Virus record (IMG/VR): IMGVR_UViG_2778261689_000009
Span: 1 to 11,799 of that record
Length of the DNA: 11,799 nucleotides
Source of the DNA: a virus
Lineage: Duplodnaviria; Heunggongvirae; Uroviricota; Caudoviricetes
Direction: 5' to 3' (one strand)
Positions 1-11,799 of the stretch are shown here, in pieces. Position numbers and translations under genes: made by a program. Below the pieces are notes generated by a model, which saw nothing but the letters and a program-made list of their open reading frames with translations, made no database searches and was not told the origin of the DNA. Position 1 is the first letter of the stretch; every line of letters begins with the position of its first letter.

Positions 1-432
1 CATTTGATCATATGACAAGATGTGTATCCACCTTAACTTAATGATTTTTACCAAAATCATTAGGGGATTCATCAGCACCAAGCCTATTCTGATAATATCC
101 TTATTGAGTTCTTTATGGATATCAACCACACTATCGAAAACTTCTTGAAACAAATGTAAGTCTACCTCTTGCTCAGAATCCATACGTTCAAAAAACAAAT
201 CACATCTCTGCAGTGAGCATTGAACTCTAAATTTATTATCTATAGAAAACAATTGGAGACGAGGAATCTCTGGTGGGGTATCCATAGGTAAAACGCCCAA
301 CATCATATTGTTTGTTAATTCAATACCTGCCTTCTTTTTAAAAGTTTGCCTAATAAAATACGACATTCCATCGAAATCGACAGTCGTTGATGAATCGTAA
401 AAAAATACCATTTGTAACTGTATGATTTTCAT
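1..432 (-). CDS. Hypothetical protein, AT-rich accessory gene, C-terminally truncated by the window edge (at least 144 aa)
   Basis: Not in the ORF track because it has no in-window stop. Reverse-complement ATG at 430-432 opens a frame that runs uninterrupted to position 1 (MKIIQLQMVFFYDSSTTVDFDGMSYF...). The region is visibly AT-rich compared with neighbouring P. It lies downstream of P, where lambda has ren. No recognisable family. Confidence 0.45.
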   Translation of the reverse strand, partial: MKIIQLQMVFFYDSSTTVDFDGMSYFIRQTFKKKAGIELTNNMMLGVLPMDTPPEIPRLQLFSIDNKFRVQCSLQRCDLFFERMDSEQEVDLHLFQEVFDSVVDIHKELNKDIIRIGLVLMNPLMILVKIIKLRWIHILSYDQM

Positions 433-584
433 CCTATATTCCAGGTTTCAGCAATTTAAATTTGGCGCATTATTCTAGCTTACAACAGCAACATTTTTGA
501 AGGGCTTTGCTAAAACTTTTATTCTCAGTGGCATTAATTTCAACCAATAGGACCTGAACAGAAAAAAACATAAAAATCAATGCA

Positions 585-1307
585 TTATTTCGAAATCTTT
601 TTATATAATGCTTTTCCCCCTTTCAGCCCAAACTTAGCTTTGATTTCTGCGATCTTCGCCAGAGCCTGTGCACGATTTAGAGGTCTACCGCCCATGACAG
701 GAAGCTGTTTTACTGGTTCAGGTATCGCCTCACCACGGTTAATTCGCGCGGTCATACAGGACAGTTCATCGGCAGCCTTGCGCCGTAATTCCGCATCAGT
801 AAGCGCATTGGCCCGCATGTTCTGGTACAGGTTGGTAACCAGCCAGTAGTGCGCGTTTGATTTCCATGGATAAGACTCTGCGTCCGGATACAGGCCACGC
901 TTCCGGCAATACTCGTAAACCATATCAACCAGCTCGCTGGCGTTTGGCAGCCCGGCGGTAACGGATGCTTCTTCCCGGCACCAGGCAACAAACTGCCCGG
1001 GTGATGGCAGGAATGGTCGATTCTGCCGACGGGCTACGCGCATTCCTGCGTTAACCTGTTCCATCGTGGTGATCCCGTTTTCCCGGAAAGCCAGAACCCA
1101 CTGGCGGCGGATTTCGTTCAGTTCGTTCTGGTCCCGGTTAGCCAGGCTCGCCGGGAAAGTTGCCAGTAACTGGCTGAACACACCATTGATGATCTGCGCT
1201 ACCTGTTGTACCTGCGGCTTTTCGTCGTACTGTTCCGGCATGTTGTTGGCGATCCGGCGCATCTGCTCACGGTCAAAGTTAACCATCTGTGCGGCGATGT
1301 TTTTCAT
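585..1307 (-). CDS. P: Replication protein P (DnaB helicase loader), lambda P-like
   Basis: 240-aa translation MKNIAAQMVNFDREQMRRIANNMPEQYDEKPQVQQ... matches lambda P over almost the whole length as I recall it; the last ~10 residues differ. Start overlaps the O stop in an ATGA (rev-comp of 1304-1307). Confidence 0.9.
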   Translation of the reverse strand: MKNIAAQMVNFDREQMRRIANNMPEQYDEKPQVQQVAQIINGVFSQLLATFPASLANRDQNELNEIRRQWVLAFRENGITTMEQVNAGMRVARRQNRPFLPSPGQFVAWCREEASVTAGLPNASELVDMVYEYCRKRGLYPDAESYPWKSNAHYWLVTNLYQNMRANALTDAELRRKAADELSCMTARINRGEAIPEPVKQLPVMGGRPLNRAQALAKIAEIKAKFGLKGGKALYKKISK

Positions 1308-2233
1308 AAATCCACCCCGTAAATCCAGTCAGTGTTTGTCAGGTCGAGTTTTGATTTTCCGGCTGTCACGCCAGCCTGTTGCTTGTTACGGTTGATTTCG
1401 AGTTGGGTCCACTTGTCGCGGAGTTTGGCCGGACTTAGCACGTTACCGGACCAGAAGTTGTCCTGGCATGCCCAGCGGAACAGTACACACATATCGCGGT
1501 GGTTACGTCCGTCACGTTCACGCATCAGGCGGATATCGTTAGCCCACCCTGCAAAATTCGGTTTTCTGGCTGATGGCGCGATGGTCTTCACCATGTCAAA
1601 CATCCACTCTGCGGCGGTCAGGTCTTCTGCTGTCCCCCACCTGCTGCCGCTCTGAATTGCAGCATCTGGTTTCTCCACAGGAAGATCGTTTTCTGGTTGG
1701 TCAGAGGATTCGCCAGAATTCTCGGACGAAAAAGGTTTTATATTGTCTTTTGTTAGTTTGTCTTTTGTGTTTACCTGATTCGGGTAAACGCCTTTACCTG
1801 ATTTGGGTAAACTTTTCTTACCTGATTCAGGTAAATTTACCTCTTTCAGGTAAACTTTATTTTTCTTACCTGATTCGGGTAATGTTGACCATTCACTGAC
1901 CACATTATTAATGCCTATATTCCGCCCGCTCTGAATAAAAATCCCACGCTTTACCAGAGCACTTTTTGCAGCAGAACACTTGTGCGGCAATATCCCGGTC
2001 AACTCGGAAAGTTGCTCGTTGCTCACCCAATCCAGTTTTTTATTAAAGCCATATGTTTTGCGCATGACAGCCAGAAAGACCAGAAGCTGGTGCTGTGTTA
2101 ATCCGGCCAGCATCACAGCTTCCAGCAACTCATTTGCAATGCGCGTATAACCATCATCGAGATCTGCCACGCGCGGCTCCTTTTGTGCCGCATCCGGCAC
2201 TGGAAAATTGAATATCTCAGCAGTGTTTGCCAT
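1304..2233 (-). CDS. O: Replication initiator protein O, lambda O-like
   Basis: Similarity to lambda O begins at MANTAEIFNF...VADLDDGY; ATG at 2233-2231 is preceded by GGGAGG (rev-comp of 2238-2243). The track ORF extends to an ATG at 2323 that overlaps the upstream gene's stop (ATGA), so a 339-aa form is possible. Iteron-encoded repeats LPESGKK/LPKSGK lie mid-protein. Confidence 0.85.
   Translation of the reverse strand: MANTAEIFNFPVPDAAQKEPRVADLDDGYTRIANELLEAVMLAGLTQHQLLVFLAVMRKTYGFNKKLDWVSNEQLSELTGILPHKCSAAKSALVKRGIFIQSGRNIGINNVVSEWSTLPESGKKNKVYLKEVNLPESGKKSLPKSGKGVYPNQVNTKDKLTKDNIKPFSSENSGESSDQPENDLPVEKPDAAIQSGSRWGTAEDLTAAEWMFDMVKTIAPSARKPNFAGWANDIRLMRERDGRNHRDMCVLFRWACQDNFWSGNVLSPAKLRDKWTQLEINRNKQQAGVTAGKSKLDLTNTDWIYGVDL
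1772..1882. repeat. Replication origin iterons: five copies of a ~16-bp palindromic TACCTGATTCGGGTAA-like repeat, flanked by an AT-rich tract at ~1735-1770
   Basis: Copies at 1772-1787, 1795-1810, 1819-1834, 1838-1853 (diverged) and 1867-1882, each of TACC...GGTA form, inside the O coding sequence as in ori-lambda. The adjacent T-rich tract tattgtcttttgttagtttgtcttttgtg fits a DNA-unwinding element. Confidence 0.75.
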
Positions 2234-2319
2234 AATTCCTCCCGCAATGAGTGCATTACGATTTGCACCTGAAAGTCGGTTCTGTTCCCGCAGACCGGCT
2301 TTCGCCATTTCTGAACCTG

Positions 2320-2865
2320 TCATATTGCCCCCAGCATGGTGGTAACCATCGCCATCAATGGACCAGCCAGATCAGGATCCACACGAAACATCGACACAAT
2401 GCCTTCACTCATCTCCTTCAGTTTCTGGTGGCGTGGTGCGTTGAGAATGACCGCCTGTTTTGCCTCGCTGAGCTCCTTTTCCATTTCAGCCAGTCGAGCC
2501 ATGAAGCTATCCTGCTCAACCAGGTGGCCGCGATATTTCAGCGGTAGTACTGCCAGAATTGCTGGAGTCAGTTCACGCACGTTATTTCGGTATTTTTCAG
2601 AATCGAATTTGTTATCGAGAAAGCGGAACAGCTTCTGGCGTGCACGACTGACATCATCAGGAAAATCGATAGTGCCGCCGCCCTGTGCTCGATACTCATT
2701 CACAATGAGTGCGGCAACAACATCCTGATTATCTGCAGCCGACCAGGCGCGGACGGCATCACGGATTTTTTCGTGGCCTGGAGCTTGTTTTGTTTGAGAA
2801 CGATTTATCACCGCAGTCGGGCTAAATCCGCTAGTCTGTTGGTATGTAAGTGGTTGCATAGTCAT
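2320..2865 (-). CDS. YdaT-like protein (Rac-prophage type) occupying the cII position
   Basis: 181-aa ORF between the Cro-like gene and O, same strand. From memory it shares short motifs with E. coli Rac YdaT (EYRAQGGG, LTPAILAVLP); unverified. Its stop overlaps an ATG at 2323 (ATGA). Confidence 0.55.
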   Translation of the reverse strand: MTMQPLTYQQTSGFSPTAVINRSQTKQAPGHEKIRDAVRAWSAADNQDVVAALIVNEYRAQGGGTIDFPDDVSRARQKLFRFLDNKFDSEKYRNNVRELTPAILAVLPLKYRGHLVEQDSFMARLAEMEKELSEAKQAVILNAPRHQKLKEMSEGIVSMFRVDPDLAGPLMAMVTTMLGAI

Positions 2866-2889
2866 TGCCTTATCAGTTAACGCCGCAGT

Positions 2890-3117
2890 TTAGGCGGCAG
2901 AATTACTCGCGTTAAACAATGGTGCGAGGTCGGGACGAATATCTGCTGGTTTAATCTTTCCACCAGTGGCTGAGACAATTTTCATTACATAGCGGGCATC
3001 AATTCCGCCACCGTGTAGCCAACGCCAAACAGTGGGTTGGGCTACACCGCATAGATCTGCCAGTCGTTTTTGACTACCTGTAATACTGATTGCGAGTTGA
3101 ATGGTTTGATTTGTCAT
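2890..3117 (-). CDS. Cro-like helix-turn-helix regulator (YdaS/Cro family)
   Basis: Small HTH protein (MTNQTIQLAISITGSQKRLADLCGVAQPTVWRWLHGG...) divergent from the CI-like repressor. The track uses a TTG at 3123; the ATG at 3117-3115 with an upstream AGGA is preferred. Confidence 0.75.
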   Translation of the reverse strand: MTNQTIQLAISITGSQKRLADLCGVAQPTVWRWLHGGGIDARYVMKIVSATGGKIKPADIRPDLAPLFNASNSAA

Positions 3118-3123
3118 TATCAA

Positions 3124-3227
3124 TTCCTATTGGTATTGCAATGAACAAATAATAGCAATGCGTATTAACCATAGCAATAGCAAAACGTGTTTTGACCATC
3201 GATACGCAAGCGTATAAATTAAAACTT
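3124..3227. promoter_or_regulatory. oR-like immunity control region with divergent promoters: pR-like (minus; -35 TTGCTA rev-comp of 3172-3177, 17-bp spacer, -10 TATTAT rev-comp of 3149-3154) and pRM-like (plus; -35 TTGACC 3192-3197, -10 ATAAAT 3214-3219)
   Basis: Hexamers and spacers read directly from the sequence. Repeated ATAGCAAT motifs (3152-3159, 3171-3178), palindromic ATTGCAAT (3135-3142) and near-palindrome CAATGCGTATTA (3156-3167) are candidate operators; the same motifs recur at 4926-5000. Confidence 0.5.
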
Positions 3228-3920
3228 ATGAAAAAAGAAACTCTTGCTGATCGCTTAAACCTAGCGATGGAACAATCTGGAATGTCTCAAGGCGCTCTTG
3301 CAAAGGCGTCTGGTGTAGCTCAACCCACAATCTGGAGACTGACAAGCGGCAATGCACGCGGATCTACAAGAATTGTCGAAATCGCTAATGCACTTGGGGT
3401 TCGCACTGAATGGCTTTCCTCAGGCATAGGCCCTATGAGGGATAATGGCGTTCAGCCAGGAAAACCGGCGACCTGCTCTTCCAAATACTTCAAGATTGAC
3501 GTTCTTGATATGGAAGTAAGTGCAGGGCCAGGCGTCATTAACCGTGAGTTCGTTGAAGTTTTGCGATCGGTTGAGTACTCCCATGATGATGCGCGTCACA
3601 TGTTTGATGGCCGCAAAGCAGAAAACATCCGCATCATTAACGTGCGTGGCGACAGCATGTCAGGAACGATCGAACCAGGTGACCTGCTGTTCGTCGATAT
3701 CAGCGTCAAATCGTTCGACGGCGATGGGATTTATGCGTTCCTCTACGACGAAACCGCTCATGTAAAACGTCTGCAAATGATGAAGGATAAGCTGCTGGTT
3801 ATCTCTGATAACAAGAGCTACTCACCGTGGGACCCGATCGAGAAAGACGAGATGAACCGAGTGTTCATCTTCGGGAAAGTCATCGGGAGCATGCCGCAGA
3901 CGTACAGGAAGCATGGATAA
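3228..3920 (+). CDS. CI-like prophage repressor: N-terminal HTH plus C-terminal LexA/S24 autopeptidase domain
   Basis: HTH segment MSQGALAKASGVAQPTIWRL; candidate Ala-Gly cleavage site in EVSAGPGV; S24 catalytic motifs VRGDSMSGTIEPGDLLFVD and HVKRL. Start taken as ATG 3228 (the track's 3192 is a TTG), which lies ~8 nt after the putative -10. Confidence 0.9.
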   Translation: MKKETLADRLNLAMEQSGMSQGALAKASGVAQPTIWRLTSGNARGSTRIVEIANALGVRTEWLSSGIGPMRDNGVQPGKPATCSSKYFKIDVLDMEVSAGPGVINREFVEVLRSVEYSHDDARHMFDGRKAENIRIINVRGDSMSGTIEPGDLLFVDISVKSFDGDGIYAFLYDETAHVKRLQMMKDKLLVISDNKSYSPWDPIEKDEMNRVFIFGKVIGSMPQTYRKHG

Positions 3921-3995
3921 AAATCTTGCTATTTATATTCATGAATACCTGCCCCCTGATTAACTCCACGCATCACTTGATATAAGGCACCAAAA

Positions 3996-4394
3996 ATGAG
4001 TAATGATGACAAATCTGTAAGTGATGAAGTATCTGATTTTCATAATAAAGTGAAAAATATTACAACCGCTCAATTTTCTGCATATTTAAAGCATGTTGGG
4101 GCAAATCATAACTGCTTATCTTGCGGTAAGGCTGAACTTATAGCAGTGCAAGACTGGCATTGGGATAAATTCAACAGCAAGGAAGGGAAAACAGATCTTA
4201 ATAATATTGAAAAATATACTGTTTTAAGGCTTTACAAGGTTGATGCTCCACATAGTAATGAGCAATGGAATATGACAAAAGAAAACCTAATGGATTATGA
4301 GTTTAGAGTGATATGCAAACATTGCGGATTCGTTACAAGTTATTTGGCATGGCTTGTTTTCTACTGGCTAAAGAATAACGAAGTTGACCAATAA
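3996..4394 (+). CDS. Hypothetical protein with two CxxCG knuckles (possible zinc ribbon); first gene of the immunity-region cassette
   Basis: 132-aa ORF with Cys40/Cys43 (CLSCG) and Cys107/Cys110 (CKHCG), an acidic N-terminus and an aromatic-rich C-terminus (YLAWLVFYWL). Clearly AT-rich relative to the flanking repressor and Red genes. Weak AAGG upstream. No recognisable family. Confidence 0.6.
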   Translation: MSNDDKSVSDEVSDFHNKVKNITTAQFSAYLKHVGANHNCLSCGKAELIAVQDWHWDKFNSKEGKTDLNNIEKYTVLRLYKVDAPHSNEQWNMTKENLMDYEFRVICKHCGFVTSYLAWLVFYWLKNNEVDQ

Positions 4395-4414
4395 TGACAT
4401 CCGGGCCAGAATAA

Positions 4415-4807
4415 ATGAATCCTTTTGATAATATTGCTCCTCTTTTCCCTGAGGGGGATGATAGAAATAACCATAAAAACGGTGGTAGTGATGGTGGGGG
4501 GAATGGCATGCTCGAGGTCAGAGTTGCAAAACTTGAAGCCGACGTTGAAAACATCAAGATAAACTTAGCGGAAACTCGCGCGGATGTGAGAGAGCTGACA
4601 AAAATTACCTCTTCTATAAAAACTGATGTTTCTACGATACTTCAAAAACTTGTAGATATTGACGAAAAGTTATCTCATAAAGCAAGTAAGGATTTTGTCG
4701 AAGTAAAAACAGGTAATTTAAAGGCTTGGATGCTCGGAATTCTTCTCTTATCCGTTGCAATGCCAGTCATAACTTTGCTCGTAAATTTATACATGAAAAA
4801 AACATAA
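4415..4807 (+). CDS. Hypothetical coiled-coil protein with a single C-terminal transmembrane helix (tail-anchored; XhlA-like architecture)
   Basis: Gly-rich N-terminus (GGSDGGGNG), heptad-like central region (LEVRVAKLEADVENIKINLAETRADVRELTKI...) and hydrophobic C-terminus AWMLGILLLSVAMPVITLLVNLYMKKT. An internal ATG at 4508 preceded by a GGGGGGAA run is an alternative start (99 aa). Confidence 0.6.
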   Translation: MNPFDNIAPLFPEGDDRNNHKNGGSDGGGNGMLEVRVAKLEADVENIKINLAETRADVRELTKITSSIKTDVSTILQKLVDIDEKLSHKASKDFVEVKTGNLKAWMLGILLLSVAMPVITLLVNLYMKKT

Positions 4808-4832
4808 CCCGGCCACCGCGCCGGGTTTTCTT
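4808..4832 (+). terminator. Rho-independent terminator closing the cassette
   Basis: GC stem CCCGGC (4808-4813) / GCCGGG (4820-4825) with a 6-nt loop, then TTTTCTT, immediately after the stop at 4805-4807. An A-run at 4793-4799 could allow bidirectional function. Confidence 0.65.
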
Positions 4833-4925
4833 CCCCCCTTCCCCAACACACTCAACGTCTAAAAAACAACCACAATCTCACTTCAGCTATCGCTACGCGA
4901 TGCAAACCACAAAATAAATTCTTTT

Positions 4926-5003
4926 TGCTATCAATGATTTAATAACCAATCGCATCAAGCAATAACAATACGTATTGATATAGCCAATAGCAATAGCTAT
5001 TAT
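4926..5003 (+). promoter_or_regulatory. oL/pL-like region: candidate pL (-35 TTGATA 4975-4980, 17-bp spacer, -10 TATTAT 4998-5003) overlapped by operator-like repeats
   Basis: Perfect 12-bp palindrome CAATACGTATTG (4966-4977), ATAGCAAT (4987-4994) and TTGCTAT (4926-4932) match the motifs at 3135-3178. The promoter faces the gam-bet-exo-xis-int genes. Confidence 0.5.
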
Positions 5004-5288
5004 CATTCCATCGCAACGACACAGCGATGGGGCAACCACCAGTTCACCCGCTTCACCGTTGCGATGACCGCTTAGATCCGCAGCTTGAATTTCAGCAGGT
5101 TCCGGGGAGTGCGAGGGGTGAAACGGACGTGTGAACGTCGGTGTGACCATCTGGAATCAACTCAACACTTCATACCTCAGTCGCTTCACCGAGGCGGCTT
5201 AGTTATGACTAACGGCGGCCATCCACCGCCAGATTAAGCGCAGAAGTCTTCATATGTTCAGCAGCCCAGCTTACGGGCAGGAGTTTTT

Positions 5289-5495
5289 ATGGTTCATCAA
5301 CATTACGGCACTCAGACCGTCAATCGCGGTGCCGTCCGGCCAGGAATGCTGGTTAAGCACAAAGATGGCACCTGGACAGCATCAGCTAATTTACGCGGTC
5401 GGCTTTATCTACACCGCGGTATCGAGCGCACCTACACCCGTGATTTGCTCGTAGAAGTTTTTCTCGATGGGCGCGGCAACGGCCTGAATCACTAA
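5289..5495 (+). CDS. Hypothetical small protein in the kil position, immediately upstream of gam
   Basis: 68-aa ORF with a good RBS (AGGAG, 5 nt before the ATG at 5289). I do not recognise it as lambda Kil or N. The overlapping 5254 frame lacks an RBS. Confidence 0.5.
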   Translation: MVHQHYGTQTVNRGAVRPGMLVKHKDGTWTASANLRGRLYLHRGIERTYTRDLLVEVFLDGRGNGLNH

Positions 5496-5570
5496 TCCCC
5501 TTTCCTGTTTTCCTAATCAGCCTGGCATTTCGCTGGCGATATTTTCACAGCCATTTTCAGGAGTTCAGCC

Positions 5571-5867
5571 ATGAACGCTTATTACATTCAGGATCGTCTT
5601 GAGGCTCAGAGCTGGGCGCGTCACTACCAGCAGATCGCCCGTGAAGAGAAAGAGGCAGAACTGGCAGACGACATGGAAAAAGGCCTGCCCCAGCACCTAT
5701 TTGAATCGCTATGCATCGATCATTTGCAACGCCACGGGGCCAGCAAAAAAGCCATTACCCGTGCGTTCGATGACGATGTTGAGTTTCAGGAGCGCATGGC
5801 AGAACACATCAGGTACATGGTTGAAACCATTGCTCACCACCAGGTTGATATTGATTCAGAGGTATAA
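5571..5867 (+). CDS. gam: Gam, host RecBCD nuclease inhibitor (lambda Red gamma, short form)
   Basis: Translation [60 protein letters not shown]...[10 protein letters not shown] is nearly identical to lambda GamS from memory; AGGAG RBS upstream. Confidence 0.92.
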
Positions 5868-5872
5868 AACGG

Positions 5873-6658
5873 ATGAGTACAGCACTCGCAACGCTGGCTG
5901 GGAAGCTGGCTGAACGTGTCGGCATGGATTCTGTCGACCCACAGGAACTGATCACCACTCTTCGCCAGACGGCATTTAAAGGTGATGCCAGCGATGCGCA
6001 GTTCATCGCATTGTTGATCGTCGCCAACCAGTACGGCCTTAATCCGTGGACGAAAGAAATTTACGCCTTCCCTGATAAGCAGAACGGCATCGTTCCGGTG
6101 GTGGGCGTTGATGGCTGGTCCCGCATCATCAATGAAAACCAGCAGTTTGATGGCATGGACTTTGAGCAGGACAATGAATCCTGTACATGCCGGATTTACC
6201 GCAAGGACCGTAATCATCCGATCTGCGTTACCGAGTGGATGGATGAATGCCGCCGCGAACCATTCAAAACCCGCGAAGGCAGAGAAATCACCGGACCGTG
6301 GCAGTCGCATCCCAAACGGATGTTACGGCATAAAGCCATGATTCAGTGTGCCCGTCTGGCCTTCGGATTTGCGGGTATCTATGACAAGGATGAAGCCGAG
6401 CGCATTGTCGAAAATACCGCATACACTGCAGAACGTCAGCCGGAACGCGACATCACTCCGGTTAACGATGAAACCATGCAGGAGATTAACACTCTGCTGA
6501 TCGCCCTGGATAAAACATGGGATGACGACTTATTGCCGCTCTGTTCCCAGATATTTCGCCGCGACATTCGCGCATCGTCAGAACTGACACAGGCCGAAGC
6601 AGTGAAAGCTCTTGGATTCCTGAAACAGAAAGCCACTGAGCAGAAGGTGGTAGCATGA
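5873..6658 (+). CDS. bet: Bet, single-strand annealing protein (lambda Red beta)
   Basis: 261-aa translation [66 protein letters not shown]... matches lambda Beta essentially end to end; its stop overlaps the exo ATG (ATGA at 6655-6658). Confidence 0.95.
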
Positions 6659-7335
6659 CACCGGACATTATCCTGCAGCGTACCGGGATCGACGTGAGAG
6701 CTGTCGAACAGGGGGATGATGCATGGCACAAATTACGGCTCGGCGTCATCACTGCTTCAGAAGTTCACAACGTGATAGCAAAGCCCCGCTCAGGAAAGAA
6801 GTGGCCTGACATGAAAATGTCCTACTTCCACACCCTGCTGGCTGAGGTTTGCACCGGTGTGGCTCCGGAAGTTAACGCTAAAGCGCTGGCATGGGGAAAA
6901 CAGTACGAGAACGACGCCAGAACCCTGTTTGAGTTCACTTCCGGCGTAAATGTTATTGAATCCCCGATCATCTATCGCGACGAAAGTATGCGCACCGCCT
7001 GCTCTCCCGATGGTTTATGCAGTGACGGCAATGGCCTTGAGCTGAAATGCCCGTTTACCTCCCGGGATTTCATGAAGTTCCGGCTCGGTGGTTTCGAGGC
7101 CATAAAGTCGGCTTACATGGCCCAGGTGCAGTACAGCATGTGGGTGACGCGAAAAGATGCCTGGTACTTTGCCAACTATGACCCGCGCATGAAGCGTGAA
7201 GGCCTGCATTATGTCGTGATTGAGCGGAATGAAAAGTACATGGCGAGTTTTGACGAGATGGTGCCGGAGTTCATCGAAAAAATGGACGAGGCACTGGCTG
7301 AAATTGGTTTTGTATTTGGGGAGCAATGGCGATGA
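6655..7335 (+). CDS. exo: Exo, 5'-3' dsDNA exonuclease (lambda Red alpha)
   Basis: 226-aa translation [65 protein letters not shown]...GFVFGEQWR matches lambda exonuclease with a few substitutions. Confidence 0.95.
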
Positions 7336-7490
7336 AGCATCCTCACGATAATATCCGGGTAGGCACGATCACTTTCGTCTACTCCGTTACAAAGCGAGGC
7401 TGGATATTTCCCGGCCTTTCTGTTATCCGAAATCCCCTGAAAGCACAGCGGCTGGCTGAGGAGATAAATAATAAACGGGGGGCTGTATGA
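7332..7490 (+). CDS. Hypothetical small protein (52 aa), translationally coupled between exo and the methyltransferase
   Basis: ATG 7332 overlaps the exo stop (ATGA) and its own stop overlaps the methyltransferase ATG (ATGA at 7487-7490); [52 protein letters not shown]. Below the ORF-track cutoff; coding status rests only on the coupling geometry. Confidence 0.3.
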
Positions 7491-8044
7491 CTGATTTCAC
7501 CGGAAGCAATACTCCTGCCGAACATCGCGACAGCTGGCGCACACCACCAGAGATTTTTGCTGCGCTTAATGCAGAGTTCGTTTTTCAACTTGATGCTGCC
7601 GCCAGCGAAAAAAACCGACTATGTCGGCTTTTTATCTCACAGGAGCAGAACACATTAACCACTTCATGGCCTGAAGCAATGGGATATGCCTCTGGTTATG
7701 TCTGGTTGAATCCACCATACAGCAATATTTCCCCTTTTGTGAAAAAGGCAGCCACTGAAAACAAATTCAGTAGTGTGGGATGTGTAATGTTATTGCCTGC
7801 TGACACATCTGTCGGATGGTTTCATGAAGCGATACAAACCGCCAGTGAGGTCAGATTCATCACGGCAGGACGACTGGCATTTATTAACCCGCTCACTGAG
7901 AAACCCGTCAGTGGAAATAATAAAGGCTCGATGCTCATTATCTGGCACCCATACCCCCGTACACACTGCCACTTTACGACCGTTGATCGTGGAGAGTTGA
8001 TGGCGTTCGGCTCAAGGATTCTTGCCCGTCGGGAGGCTGCATGA
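7487..8044 (+). CDS. Phage orphan DNA N6-adenine methyltransferase (Dam-like)
   Basis: 185-aa ORF with the amino-methyltransferase catalytic tetrapeptide NPPY (YVWLNPPYSNISPF). No adjacent restriction endonuclease candidate. Size and position resemble orphan methyltransferases in other enterobacterial prophages. Confidence 0.8.
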   Translation: MTDFTGSNTPAEHRDSWRTPPEIFAALNAEFVFQLDAAASEKNRLCRLFISQEQNTLTTSWPEAMGYASGYVWLNPPYSNISPFVKKAATENKFSSVGCVMLLPADTSVGWFHEAIQTASEVRFITAGRLAFINPLTEKPVSGNNKGSMLIIWHPYPRTHCHFTTVDRGELMAFGSRILARREAA

Positions 8045-8124
8045 CAACCACGGAATGCATTTTTCTGGCAGCGGGCTTCATATTCTGTGTGCTTATGCTT
8101 GCCGACATGGGACTTGTTCAATGA
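8041..8124 (+). CDS. Hypothetical 27-aa hydrophobic peptide (MTTTECIFLAAGFIFCVLMLADMGLVQ), translationally coupled on both sides
   Basis: ATG 8041 overlaps the methyltransferase stop (ATGA 8041-8044) and its stop overlaps the next ATG (ATGA 8121-8124). The sequence would form a single transmembrane helix. Could also be a purely regulatory coupling ORF. Confidence 0.3.
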   Translation: MTTTECIFLAAGFIFCVLMLADMGLVQ

Positions 8125-8336
8125 CACCTCAGCAGGAAAACGCCCTTCGCAGCATTGCCCGTCAGGCTAATTCTGAAATCAAAAAAGCCAGACAGCAGTT
8201 TCCGGATAAAAACGTCGATGACATTTGCCGTAGCGTACTGAAGAAGCACCGCGAAACGGTAACGCTGATGGGATTCACACCGACTCATTTAAGCCTGGCG
8301 ATCGGCATGTTAAACGGCGTCTTTAAGGAGCGATGA
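8121..8336 (+). CDS. Hypothetical protein (71 aa)
   Basis: MTPQQENALRSIARQANSEIKKARQQFPDKNVDDICRSVLKKHRETVTLMGFTPTHLSLAIGMLNGVFKER. Start chosen at the coupled ATG 8121 rather than the longer 8022 track ORF, which overlaps the methyltransferase. Confidence 0.5.
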   Translation: MTPQQENALRSIARQANSEIKKARQQFPDKNVDDICRSVLKKHRETVTLMGFTPTHLSLAIGMLNGVFKER

Positions 8337-8358
8337 ACATGAAAAGCAAAATCATCAG

Positions 8359-8385
8359 GGAGCTACAGGCTCCTTTTTTATTATT
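8359..8385 (+). terminator. Candidate weak intrinsic terminator or attenuator (tL-like)
   Basis: GGAGC (8359-8363) / GCTCC (8369-8373) stem with a 5-nt loop, followed by TTTTTTATTATT. The stem is short, so this is uncertain. Confidence 0.3.
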
Positions 8386-8434
8386 CGCATTCACCCTCAA
8401 GCGTATTAACCAACAATTCAGGGATTAATGGAAG

Positions 8435-8653
8435 ATGGCAGACATCATTGATTCAGCATCAGAAATCGAAGAATTACAGCGCAATACAGCAATAAAAATG
8501 CGTCGTCTGAACCACCAGGTTATATCTGCCACTCATTGTTGTGAGTGTGGCGATCCCATAGATGAACGAAGACGCCTGGCCGTTCAGGGTTGTCGGACTT
8601 GTGCAAGTTGCCAGGAGGAGATCGAACTTAAGAACAAACAATGGGGATTGTGA
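8435..8653 (+). CDS. TraR/DksA-family C4 zinc-finger protein
   Basis: 72 aa with C-x2-C-x14-C-x2-C (CECGDPIDERRRLAVQGCRTC), the size and motif spacing typical of phage and plasmid TraR-like RNA-polymerase secondary-channel binders. Confidence 0.75.
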   Translation: MADIIDSASEIEELQRNTAIKMRRLNHQVISATHCCECGDPIDERRRLAVQGCRTCASCQEEIELKNKQWGL

Positions 8654-8700
8654 TGGCCTCAAAGCAGCAAATTTCAACATCGTCCAACTGAGGTGTAAAA

Positions 8701-8979
8701 ATGTTCAGAATCATTTTTCCTAACACCTGGTACGTCGACCACCACGGCACTCCCTGCAAAATCCTGCGTTCTACCCACAACAAAGTTCACTACATCCGAA
8801 AAGGCAGAACATGTATCGCCAGCATGTTCCGCTTTAATCATGACTTTGAACCTGTGAATAAAGCTGATGCAGATCGGATAGCAGAAGAGATCGAAACGGC
8901 AGAACACATTAAGAAGTTACGTGACATGCGTTCAAAAAGCAGAGGTAACCATGGAATCATACAGCCTCACACTCGATGA
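8701..8979 (+). CDS. Hypothetical protein (92 aa) upstream of and overlapping xis
   Basis: Good RBS (GAGGTG ~7 nt before ATG 8701). The 3' end overlaps the xis start by 29 nt in another frame. No recognisable family. Confidence 0.5.
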   Translation: MFRIIFPNTWYVDHHGTPCKILRSTHNKVHYIRKGRTCIASMFRFNHDFEPVNKADADRIAEEIETAEHIKKLRDMRSKSRGNHGIIQPHTR

Positions 8980-9301
8980 GGCCTGTCAGTTTCTCAAGAT
9001 ATCCAGACCTACCGCTACCAACTGGATACGAACAGGCCGCCTACAGGCAACACGCAAAGACCCCACAAAACTAAAATCTCCTTACCTCACAACACGACAA
9101 GCCTGCATTGCGGCGCTTCAGTCTCCGCTGCATACTGTCCAGGTGAGCGCGGGTGATGGCATAACAGAGGAAAGAAAATGTCACTCTTCCGCAGAAGTGA
9201 AATATGGTACGCCAGTTTCACATTGCCGAACGGTAAAAGATTTAAACAGTCTCTTGGAACAAAGGACAAAAGGCAGGCGACAGAGCTCCATGACAAGCTA
9301 A
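8951..9301 (+). CDS. xis: Excisionase, P22 Xis-like
   Basis: [36 protein letters not shown]... resembles P22 Xis from memory; RBS AGAGGT before ATG 8951 (the track's 8921 start adds 10 residues with no RBS). Overlaps the int start. Confidence 0.8.
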
Positions 9302-10341
9302 AGGCTGAAGCATGGCGGGTCAGCAAACTTGGTGAAATACCTGATATGACGTTTGAGGAAGCGTGTGTCAGGTGGCTCGAAGAGAAAGCACATAAGAAAT
9401 CACTGGACGATGACAAAAGCCGGATCGGATTCTGGCTTCAACATTTCGCAGGGATGCAACTAAGAGACATTACTGAATCAAAAATTTATTCAGCAATGCA
9501 GAAAATGACGAACCGGCGTCATGAGGAAAACTGGAAACTCAGGGCAGAAGCATGCAGAAAAAAAGGGAAACCTGTTCCAGAATACACGCCAAAACCAGCG
9601 TCCGTTGCAACGAAGGCTACGCATCTTTCATTTATAAAGGCCCTACTAAGAGCCGCAGAGCGTGAATGGAAAATGCTGGATAAGGCACCAATTATTAAAG
9701 TGCCTCAACCAAAGAATAAACGGATCCGCTGGCTGGAGCCCCATGAAGCACAAAGGCTGATTGATGAATGTCCGGAGCCATTAAAGTCTGTTGTTGAATT
9801 TGCACTGGCAACAGGCTTAAGACGCTCGAACATCATCAACCTTGAATGGCAACAAATAGATATGCAGCGCCGGGTGGCATGGATAAACCCGGAAGAGAGT
9901 AAATCAAACCGCGCAATCGGCGTTGCGCTGAATGATACTGCATGTCGCGTTTTGAAAAAACAAATCGGGAATCATCACCGTTGGGTATTTGTGTACAAGG
10001 AAAGCTGTACCAAACCAGACGGAACGAAAGCGCCAACAGTAAGGAAGATGCGGTATGACGCAAACACAGCCTGGAAAGCGGCGCTGAGACGAGCAGGTAT
10101 TGATGATTTCAGATTTCACGACTTGAGACACACCTGGGCAAGTTGGCTGGTTCAAGCCGGAGTCCCGTTGTCAGTGTTACAGGAAATGGGAGGCTGGGAG
10201 TCTATCGAAATGGTTCGTCGATATGCTCACCTCGCACCTAATCACCTTACCGAACATGCACGGCAAATAGACTCGATCCTGAACCCATCGGTCCCAAATT
10301 TGTCCCAGTCAAAAAATAAGGAAGGTACTAATGATGTGTAA
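9178..10341 (+). CDS. int: Tyrosine integrase, P22 Int-like (thrW-specific)
   Basis: 387 aa, [53 protein letters not shown]..., very close to P22 Int as I recall it; tyrosine-recombinase motifs HDLRHT and VRRYAHL present; ends 15 bp from the tRNA. Confidence 0.95.
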
Positions 10342-10355
10342 CTTATTGATTTTAA

Positions 10356-10431
10356 TGGTGCCGATAATAGGAGTCGAACCTACGACCTTCGCATTACGAA
10401 TGCGCTGCTCTACCAACTGAGCTATATCGGC
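10356..10431 (-). tRNA. thrW: tRNA-Thr (anticodon CGU), thrW, including 3' CCA; phage attachment target
   Basis: Reverse complement reads GCCGATATAGCTCAGTTGGTAGAGCAGCGCATTCGTAATGCGAAGGTCGTAGGTTCGACTCCTATTATCGGCACCA, a 76-nt cloverleaf-compatible tRNA with anticodon loop TTCGTAA. The 3' end faces the integrase. Confidence 0.92.
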
Positions 10432-10545
10432 CCTGAAAGGACATGTTCACGAACGTGAATCACGGTGGACAAGGTTAAAACTAACCGGGCGATGCGTCAA
10501 TGGCCTTGTGAATCAAATGGCTACTTTTGCATCACCCGGTTTTAT

Positions 10546-11799
10546 TTACGCACGAATGGTGTAATCACCAATGCCGATCCACTTGTAAGTGGTCAGTGCT
10601 TCCAGCCCCATTGGGCCACGCGCGTGGAGTTTTTGTGTGCTTACCGCCACTTCCGCACCCAGACCAAACTGGCCGCCGTCGGTAAAACGCGTAGAGGCGT
10701 TAACGTAAACAGCGGACGAATCCACTTCGTTAACAAAACGCTGGGCGTTGCGCATATCGCGGGTCAGGATCGCATCGGAGTGTTGTGTGCCGTGTTCACG
10801 AATATGGGCGATGGCATCGTCAAGATCGCTGACGATTTTGACGTTCAAATCTAATGACAGAAACTCATCGTCATACTCTTCGGCTTTAACAGCAACCACC
10901 TTCGCAGGGCCTGCCTGCAACTGCGCCAGTGCAGCTGCATCTGCGTGTAATGTCACGCCGCTTTCCGCCATTTGTTTGCTTAATGCGGGCAGGAAGCTAT
11001 CGGCGATGTTTTTATTCACCAGCAACGTTTCAACCGTATTACATGTGCTCGGACGCTGAGTTTTCGCGTTGACGATCACTTTTAATGCTTCAGCGATCTC
11101 TACACTTTCATCAACGTAAATATGGCATACGCCTATACCACCTGTGATCACCGGGATTGTCGACTGTTCACGGCACAGTTTATGCAAACCAGCGCCACCA
11201 CGCGGGATCAGCATGTCGATGTATTTATCCATACGCAGCATTTCACTGACCAGCGCACGGTCAGGATTATCAATCGCCTGCACGGCACCCGCCGGTAAGC
11301 CGCAGGATTTCAGGGCGTCCTGAATCACCGCCACCGTTGCAGCGTTAGTGCGACACGTTTCTTTGCCACCGCGCAGGATCACCGCATTACCGGTTTTCAG
11401 GCACAGCGAAGCGACATCAACCGTCACGTTCGGGCGCGCTTCATAAATCACGCCAATAACCCCCAGCGGTACGCGACGACGCTCAAGACGCAGGCCGCTG
11501 TCCAGTACGCCGCCATCGATTACCTGCCCCACCGGATCGGCGAGGTTGCACACCTGACGTACATCGTCGGCAATGCCTTTCAGCCGTGCGGGCGTCAGTG
11601 CCAGACGGTCAAGCATCGCTTCGCTAAGGCCATTGGCTCGCGCGTCAGCAACATCCTGGGCGTTAGCGTTGAGGATGATTTCGCTTTGTGCTTCCAGTTC
11701 ATCGGCGATTTTTTCCAGCACGCGATTTTTTTCGCGGCTGGAGAGTTGCGCTAATTTATACGAGGCTTGCTTCGCGGCAATGCCCATTTGTTCCAGCAT
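10546..11799 (-). CDS. proA: Gamma-glutamyl phosphate reductase (host core gene)
   Basis: 417-aa translation [75 protein letters not shown]... matches enterobacterial ProA; the start codon sits exactly at the window end. Confidence 0.95.

Follow-up and report, generated by a model that had tools for sequence, protein, structure and literature searches.

The described switches that stand closest to the one analyzed here are those of phages lambda and 434 and of prophage CP-933P. In lambda, the -10 hexamer of pRM, the promoter of the repressor gene cI, is followed after 6 nucleotides (nt) by the start codon of that gene (TAGATT-6 nt-ATG). The repressor of phage 434 is the closest solved homologue of the N-terminal domain of the repressor described below. 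In CP-933P, the mRNA of the repressor gene paaR2 proved leaderless by 5' RACE (rapid amplification of cDNA ends) and N-terminal sequencing, and the control region holds two overlapping types of repeat, the target sequences of the repressor PaaR2 and of YdaS not having been told apart (PMC8630535). Here we describe the corresponding control regions in an 11,799-nt stretch of viral DNA (hereafter the window; positions 1 to 11,799 of IMG/VR record IMGVR_UViG_2778261689_000009), the early part of a lambdoid prophage. We hold with good confidence, on the strength of sequence comparison, that segment 3118-3227 is the right operator (oR) with its divergent promoters, that segment ~4917-5003 is the left operator (oL) with promoter pL, that a single specificity serves both operators and that the repressor is made from a leaderless mRNA. 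The immunity specificity would be a new one, apparently not described before, within a switch whose design is ordinary and known from lambda and 434.

The 110-bp intergenic region in question separates two divergent genes. On the + strand (3228-3920) lies the gene of a cI-like repressor of 230 amino acids (aa), which matches Pfam HTH_3 (helix-turn-helix, HTH) and Peptidase_S24. On the - strand (2890-3117) lies a cro-like gene encoding 75 aa, which leads the pR operon and whose product belongs to the YdaS family (YdaS_toxin, PF15943, E 9.6e-15) and also to PHROG 35 (transcriptional repressor). A second AT-rich control region, containing oL and pL, is found downstream of cI at ~4917-5003. Four characters by which a lambdoid cI/Cro switch is recognized are present, namely divergent genes, at least three sites in oR, an oL placed over pL, and a repressor that combines HTH and LexA-like autopeptidase domains. 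For a fifth, binding of the sites by repressor and Cro with opposite preference, the indications are indirect, being the recognition helix common to the two proteins and the way in which the motif goes with the HTH domain and Cro.

The sequence-only reading of this DNA had proposed three motifs shared between oR and oL, an observation that is confirmed, with caveats. An exact-match scan placed ATAGCAAT at 3152, 3171 and 4987, the last of these in oL, and CAATGCGTATTA at 3156, a relative of which, CAATACGTATTG, constitutes the perfect 12-bp palindrome at 4966-4977. The third motif, ATTGCAAT (3135), neither recurs in oL nor is conserved in relatives, and was rejected as an operator element on both grounds. 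The copy of ATAGCAAT at 3171 is mostly the -35 element of pR and the start of site oR2, and it varies in relatives.

The operator sites themselves emerged from three kinds of scan. The top family of an unbiased repeat search was a 17-mer with four copies, at 3151, 3176, 4961 and 4986, the copies lying 25 bp apart in both oR and oL. The pattern AATAGCAATNCGTATT, with up to 3 mismatches allowed, gave 9 matches where 0.40 were expected, every one of them in 3082-3191 or 4961-5001, a count that was reached in none of 200 shuffles. When 2 mismatches at most were allowed, the symmetric pattern AATASSNNNNSSTATT gave 12 matches (3.6 expected), 8 of them in the oR and oL regions, and also revealed a third phased oR site at 3201. 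All sites fit the 16-bp pseudo-palindrome AATAsS-N4-SsTATT, with the core ATAs-N6-sTAT, and they are arranged as three copies in oR at exact 25-bp phasing (beginning at 3151, 3176 and 3201) and two copies in oL, again 25 bp apart (4961 and 4986).

Site oR1 (3151-3166, AATAGC-AATG-CGTATT) lies across the spacer of pR and over some of its -10, and oR2 (3176-3191, AATAGC-AAAA-CGTGTT) has a weaker right half. Site oR3 (3201-3216, GATACG-CAAG-CGTATA) carries 14-bp palindromic arms, ATACGC/GCGTAT, and has 6.0 of 8 symmetric pairs at the dyad that the sites share. On the left side, oL2 (4961-4976, AATAAC-AATA-CGTATT) contains most of the palindrome at 4966-4977, and oL1 (4986-5001, AATAGC-AATA-GCTATT), which lies over the pL spacer, has perfect 6-bp arms. 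A possible weak oL3 (4941-4956, AATAAC-CAAT-CGCATC), 20 bp from oL2, is assigned with low confidence; only the left half of this candidate (TAATAsy) is kept in relatives.

The promoters around which these sites lie are predictions of a promoter scan. Promoter pR (3149-3177, - strand) has the -35 element TTGCTA (3177-3172), a 17-bp spacer and the extended -10 TGcTATTAT (TATTAT at 3154-3149), with a predicted start at ~3142; the TTG of its -35 is retained in relatives. Promoter pRM (3192-3220, + strand) consists of TTGACC (3192-3197), a 17-bp spacer and TAAATT (3215-3220), with a predicted start at A3228, and both hexamers are near-invariant across 31 distinct oR sequences. Promoter pL (4975-5003, + strand) matches 10 of the 12 consensus positions, with TTGATA (4975-4980), a 17-bp spacer, TATTAT (4998-5003) and a predicted start at ~A5010. 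Promoter pL is placed with respect to oL1 and oL2 exactly as pR is with respect to oR1 and oR2: the -10 elements overlap oR1 and oL1, respectively, by 4 bp, and the -35 elements overlap oR2 and oL2 by 2 bp. The pRM -35 follows directly after oR2, whose last base precedes it, and oR3 lies over the pRM spacer and the first bases of the pRM -10.

This layout follows the logic of lambda. What the sequences show is this promoter geometry, the motif with its phasing and conservation, its inheritance together with the HTH domain and Cro, and the lack of a Shine-Dalgarno sequence before the repressor gene; the regulatory consequences are inferred, as are binding, the order in which sites are filled, activation of pRM, DNA looping and the exact start of transcription. 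Repressor dimers on oR1 and oR2 and on oL1 and oL2 would occlude pR and pL, and the dimer at oR2, abutting the pRM -35, would be placed where contact with RNA polymerase and activation of pRM are possible. At high repressor levels, occupation of oR3 over pRM would shut this promoter off. The YdaS-type Cro, which has the same recognition helix, would be expected to read the same sites, and the prophage would be induced through RecA-stimulated cleavage of the repressor at Ala99-Gly100.

Relatives were fetched from the genomes of six species, from IMG/VR (80 loci) and from annotated phages; the IMG/VR repressors, all 95-100% identical, are informative on the diversity of oL and not on deep divergence. 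Sites at -77, -52 and -27 from the repressor ATG, together with two sites 25 bp apart downstream of cI, are present in prophages of Kluyvera intermedia, K. cryocrescens, K. georgiana, Citrobacter pasteurii and Raoultella lignicola, in PhiR68_2 and in the P22-like Salmonella phage Salfasec13b, and the same sites and spacing recur in the 80 IMG/VR loci. The proposal that one specificity serves both operators agrees with the same 16-bp sites and 25-bp phasing on both sides of cI in ~80 loci, and the motif search in other prophages carrying this repressor, which had been suggested as a check, returned the same sites from Kluyvera, Citrobacter and Raoultella, from Salfasec13b and from IMG/VR. Operator oL was found in 81 of 88 sequences (87 fetched loci and the window), at 1352-2876 bp from the cI ATG, a distance that varies because the cargo genes in between differ; most of the 7 loci without it are truncated. 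The cro-oR-cI segment occurs at roughly 90% identity or more in ~600 of 5,426 complete Escherichia coli genomes.

A phylogenetic footprint over the 31 distinct oR sequences shows how variation is distributed. Variable columns number 3 of 16 in oR1 (with changes at site positions 1, 10 and 11), 4 of 16 in oR2 and 2 of 16 in oR3; they number 10 of 13 in the spacer at 3138-3150 and 9 of 9 in the spacer at 3167-3175. In diverged versions of oL, the arms AATAsy/rsTATT are kept and the 4-bp centre changes or inverts among AATA, CATT, TATT and AATT. Judging from these alignments, arms that persist around a flipping centre are the expectation for a site bound by a dimer, and not for promoter homology alone.

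The register of the dyad was examined by scoring complementary pairs (out of 8) over all distinct site instances from the relatives. The dyad of the 16-bp pattern, at operator position 8.5, had the top mean (5.08 of 8 pairs) and was the sole register to fit oR3 and oL1. The register of the 12-bp palindrome, which lies 3 bp rightward, came second (mean 4.32 of 8) and was best only for oL2. The palindrome at 4966-4977, to which attention had been drawn from the sequence alone, is indeed perfect, but as an operator dyad it was rejected, given the higher score of the 16-bp register, the fit of that register to oR3 and oL1, and the fact that the last three bases of the palindrome are the TTG of the pL -35 TTGATA (4975-4980). 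It is best read, on present alignments, as the right half of oL2 joined to the pL -35 and not as the operator axis. Another palindrome, CAAAAC-GT-GTTTTG at 3181-3194, is nearly invariant in relatives.

The repressor ATG at 3228 stands shortly after TATAAAT (3213-3219). There is a single + strand promoter match in oR, and its -10 ends 7 nt before this codon. The distance from -10 to ATG is always 7 nt in relatives, even though the seven nucleotides read AAAACTT, AAAAACC, AAAAATT, AAAAACT, TGAGACT or GAATATT; the -1 position is a pyrimidine and the ATG is kept in all of them. No Shine-Dalgarno sequence (SD) is found in the 22 nt upstream of 3228, where the best anti-SD pairing reaches -0.1 kcal/mol; values from -3.8 to -9.4 kcal/mol were obtained for those genes of the window that are identified with confidence, cro, ydaT, O, P and kil among them. 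Neither of the internal ATGs (3267 and 3282) has a better position for SD pairing. In comparisons of codons 1-19 with four relatives, we counted 4-6 synonymous and 2-5 non-synonymous changes, synonymous ones being commoner in three of the four, and repressor residues 6-66 align to the DNA-binding domain of 434 from its residue 2. The selection on codons 1-19 and the 434 alignment together indicate that the protein starts at 3228. The first ~20 nt of the mRNA would be A-rich and are unpaired in the centroid structure.

Transcription from pRM would accordingly begin at or within 1 nt of A3228, so that the repressor would be translated from a leaderless mRNA, which we consider very probable from this geometry. 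The leaderless transcript that the sequence-only reading proposed is thus supported by the comparisons; the best -10 is TAAATT (3215-3220, 17-bp spacer), from which the gap measures 7 nt and not ~8. The same leaderless geometry is seen in a sister immunity type introduced below (TACATT-6 nt-ATG), and the sequence of paaR2 in CP-933P reads GATAAT-6 nt-ATG.

It is unlikely that the repressor mRNA has a leader or that translation starts at another codon, either Met19 or the upstream TTG at 3192. Such a reading draws on the disagreement of start annotations among database records, on the weakness of the pRM -10 and on the analogy of CP-933P, by which a YdaT-activated transcript of the pRE type with a long leader probably also exists. 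However, no SD precedes 3228, 3267 or the TTG, the distance from -10 to ATG is invariant, and residues 1-19, which form HTH helix 1, are conserved with synonymous changes. Each of the two other starts has been annotated. The Met19 start (PhiR68_2, position 1983 of locus L001) was rejected because residues 1-19 are conserved and the 434 alignment points to the ATG equivalent to 3228. The TTG start, whose equivalent is annotated in Salfasec13b (position 2965 of locus L088), was rejected because this TTG belongs to the pRM -35 and lies within operator DNA. Both annotations look wrong in the light of these comparisons.

Which protein reads the sites was approached through the repressor, Cro and their natural domain swaps. 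In the alignment of relatives, repressor residues Ser98-Ala99-Gly100, Ser143 and Lys180 are invariant. The N-terminal domain matches 434 repressor chains over residues 6-66 (phmmer E 1.4e-5 to 1e-4) and is 40% identical to Cro over 48 aa, with the common segment GVAQPT(I/V)WR. At the DNA level, an inverted repeat spans oR, 3025-3048 (-) matching 3312-3335 (+) at 20 of 24 nt, and encodes GVAQPT(V/I)W in cro and cI.

The K. georgiana repressor (L007) has the same N-terminal domain and a diverged C-terminal domain (58% overall identity), and its operators are kept. Conversely, the repressors of K. grimontii (L006), E. coli EECO1006 (L091) and phage PhiR26_1 (L092) join a different HTH to a C-terminal domain that is almost the same, Cro differs as well, and in these three loci the motif AATAsS-N4-SsTATT is entirely absent. 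In its place, their control regions (2899-3003 of L006, 2148-2255 of L091 and 1360-1467 of L092) hold A(A/C)AACC...GGTTGT repeats, with N2-6 between the arms, in the same promoter layout. The recognition helices of this sister type are VSQAAIQK in cI and VSQQAVYK in Cro, both changed together. In a further ~1,600 E. coli genomes the match is confined to the C-terminal domain of the repressor, the HTH being another one, and most of them probably carry the sister type. In phage ASU11, the N-terminal domain is 72% identical, helix 3 has the same QPTIWR, AATAGC-N4-CCTATT and AATAGC-N4-GCTATA lie upstream of the repressor, and the gene at the position of Cro differs. These natural swaps indicate that the motif follows the DNA-reading module, and the joint change of the helices in cI and Cro fits two proteins that would read the same half-sites, as in 434.

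The same material bears on the possibility that the sites are operators of the YdaS-type Cro only, the S24 repressor reading another or an overlapping sequence, such as a 12-bp CAAT-N4-ATTG register or CAAAAC/GTTTTG. The sites are never without this Cro, good scores are obtained for oL2 and oR2 with dyads at operator positions 11.5 and 12.5, and the two overlapping repeat types of CP-933P (PMC8630535) offer a precedent. Nevertheless, the recognition helix is identical in cI and Cro, ASU11 has AATAGC...CTATT sites with a QPTIWR repressor in spite of another gene at the Cro position, and the dyad at position 8.5 has the highest mean score and alone fits oR3 and oL1, so that we regard operators of Cro only as unlikely. 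That the repeats are the shared architecture of paralogous AT-rich pR and pL promoters and not protein-binding sites is scarcely credible: some similarity is to be expected where oR1/oR2 and oL1/oL2 overlap -10 and -35 elements with identical geometry, but oR3 has the same half-sites over another promoter on the opposite strand, conservation is higher in half-sites beyond the hexamers than in the pR -35 itself, relatives have oL1 with an inverted centre between unchanged arms, and the motif is lost when HTH and Cro are exchanged despite a retained promoter layout.

The interpretation we prefer remains that of two operators of one specificity, read by the repressor and probably also by Cro, with a leaderless repressor mRNA, and a number of observations weigh against parts of it. 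We found no description of the operator AATAsS-N4-SsTATT or of its immunity type in the library of papers searched. The comparative data cannot tell binding by cI from binding by Cro, because both genes are always co-inherited with the sites. The second dyad, 3 bp off, comes close to the first for oR1 and surpasses it for oL2, which leaves the exact 16-bp register less than proven. Site oR2 has a weak right half, and its right part combines with the start of the pRM -35 into a palindrome of another kind, 14 bp long (CAAAAC-GT-GTTTTG, 3181-3194). Finally, the pRM -10 matches only 4 of 6 consensus positions, the alternative TATAAA requiring a poor 15-bp spacer, and the 7-nt gap is compatible with a start at T3227, that is, with a leader of 1 nt.

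Two variant sites lie outside the phased series. The first (3122-3137, AATTCC-TATT-GGTATT), with one mismatch to the operator pattern, is placed over the SD of cro, at ~+6 to +21 of the pR transcript. Its half-sites are conserved in relatives and its centre is variable, and by its sequence it may be a fourth oR site; conservation of the SD is an alternative explanation for the conserved half-sites. The second (4917-4932, AATTCT-TTTT-GCTATC) belongs to a conserved block upstream of oL (4911-4941) composed of an A-tract, AAATTC, TTT and GCTATCAA, which is kept even in diverged versions of oL. It overlaps an exact consensus of integration host factor (IHF), TATCAATGATTTA, at 4929-4941, which corresponds to about -70 to -80 of pL. 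The pattern AATTC-N6-sTAT matches the window only at 3122 and 4917, where 0.21 matches would be expected, the pattern having been chosen after seeing the data. The two may be auxiliary operators, may reflect an IHF site, or may be conserved for other reasons. That these are deliberate extra sites, the one at 4917 lying ~45 bp upstream of oL2 and fused to an IHF site, seems doubtful. If the repressor or Cro does bind them, the switch would have 4+4 sites compared with the 3+3 of lambda, the site at 3122-3137 would block cro after transcription initiation or block its translation, and an IHF-assisted loop between oL and oR could be envisaged.

A further candidate in the same neighbourhood is an operator for YdaT. 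The sequence TTGATT-TGTCAT-TATCAA at 3106-3123, which spans the start codon of cro, has the form TTGATT-N6-TATCAA, one mismatch from the YdaT site TTGATT-N6-AATCAA of CP-933P. It was rejected in view of a count that is not significant, poor conservation and a position unlike that of the CP-933P site.

Downstream of oL, the pL leader (5008-5288, ~280 nt) contains no convincing open reading frame (ORF), the only one being 5254-5454, which is devoid of an SD, and no N gene was found in it, kil being the first gene. Structure is evident in this leader (z -2.1): at its predicted 5' end a 10-bp stem pairs 5009-5018 with 5057-5066, and the motif CGCTTCACCG is repeated in it (5044-5063 and 5177-5196). 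Segment 5169-5230 matches the DNA that precedes kil in phage HK225 at 97% identity. The leader may be an RNA element, acting for example in antitermination or stability. An Rfam scan of the window returned only a transfer RNA (tRNA) and a fragment of RNA-OUT, and nothing in oR, oL or the pL leader.

The surrounding genes are those of an early lambdoid region, and segment 2880-5060 has a 100% identical counterpart in E. coli strain L9. On the - strand, the cro-like gene is followed by a gene for a YdaT-type CII (2320-2865; PF06254, E 5.6e-29), by O (1304-2323) and by P (585-1307). A GC hairpin, GCCGC-AGTTTAG-GCGGC (2882-2898), lies across the stop codon of cro on the side of ydaT, at the place taken in lambda by nutR and tR1. 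On the + strand, cI is followed by two unknown cargo ORFs (3996-4394 and 4415-4807) that occupy the position of rexAB, between cI and oL. The first encodes two Cys-x2-Cys pairs (PHROG 4293) and the second a hydrophobic segment at the C-terminus (PHROG 3556); neither has a Pfam match, and PADLOC gave no convincing match for them. This slot is filled differently in relatives, in some of them with toxin-antitoxin pairs. A GC-rich hairpin terminator (4806-4827), after both cargo ORFs and upstream of oL, was scored on the - strand by a terminator scan; read on the + strand, this stem runs into TTTTCTT, and the hairpin marks the end of the cI operon. Beyond oL and pL, the + strand continues with kil (5289-5495) and with ORFs located where the annotation of PhiR68_2 has gam, bet and exo.

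Farther to the right, a tRNA gene (10359-10431, - strand, 71.8 bits) adjoins a 387-aa ORF (9178-10341, + strand) that we take to be the integrase. An IHF consensus (10339-10351) coincides with their junction, which is probably the attachment site of the prophage. At the left edge of the window, positions 1-30 are a partial match to RNA-OUT (IS10-type).

The immunity type defined by these operators is common, being present in E. coli, in P22-like Salmonella phages and in prophages of Kluyvera, Citrobacter and Raoultella. With the operator consensus in hand, homo- and hetero-immunity become predictable among these prophages, the consensus also helps to design virulent or inducible derivatives, and the start codons of the repressor, discordant between records, are corrected. 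The pairs that share a C-terminal domain and differ in HTH, Cro and operators provide material for the study of repressor-operator co-evolution. If the transcription start were mapped at the ATG, one more lambdoid repressor with a leaderless mRNA would be added to those described. The general understanding of such switches is unchanged.

With lambda, the locus shares the divergent cI and cro genes around a tripartite operator of ~110 bp, a second operator cluster with pL beyond the cargo genes downstream of cI, a middle operator that abuts the pRM -35, and a repressor made of HTH and S24 autopeptidase domains whose ATG follows the pRM -10 by a few nucleotides. The sites of lambda, however, are 17 bp long and of the TATCACCGC type, whereas those described here are 16-bp AATAsS-N4-SsTATT elements at exact 25-bp phasing. 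Cro is here a YdaS-type HTH protein that has the recognition helix of the repressor, a YdaT protein takes the position of cII, and no N gene follows pL, where kil is the first ORF. A distinct immunity specificity had been surmised from the sequence alone, and in keeping with this, none of the operator consensus sequences of lambda, P22 and CP-933P occurs in oR or oL.

Prophage CP-933P of E. coli O157:H7 (Jurenas et al. 2021, PMC8630535) resembles this locus in that Cro is of the YdaS type and CII of the YdaT type. The two also have in common an intergenic region of ~100 bp with several phased repeats over pR and pRM, a pL that lies apart and has operators to match, and a repressor ATG that follows the -10 by 6-7 nt and is itself followed directly by A-rich codons. 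They differ in that PaaR2 has 123 aa and no S24 domain; its homology to the 230-aa repressor was not detectable (BLASTP E 4.4) and was rejected on that value. Furthermore, the Cro proteins are only 31% identical, the CP-933P operator consensus GTTTAGTAA is absent from oR and oL here (up to 1 mismatch), and the cargo is a toxin-antitoxin system there and two unknown ORFs here.

The comparison with 434 concerns the way in which the DNA would be read. The N-terminal DNA-binding domains are homologous (E 1.4e-5), helix 3 starts in both with a conserved glutamine, cI and Cro are HTH paralogues that would here, as in 434, share their target sites, and the core of the sites can be divided into 4 contacted, 6 central and 4 contacted bp, ATAs-N6-sTAT here and ACAA-N6-TTGT in 434. 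The 14-bp operator of 434 itself has only chance matches with 1 mismatch, at 4909 and 4965, and none in oR. The difference resides in the sequence of the half-site, in helix 3 (QPTIWR here compared with QQSIEQ in 434) and in the flanking A/T, whose conservation extends the site here to 16 bp. The sister type of L006 and L091, with its A(A/C)AAC...GTTGT repeats, is the more 434-like of the two.

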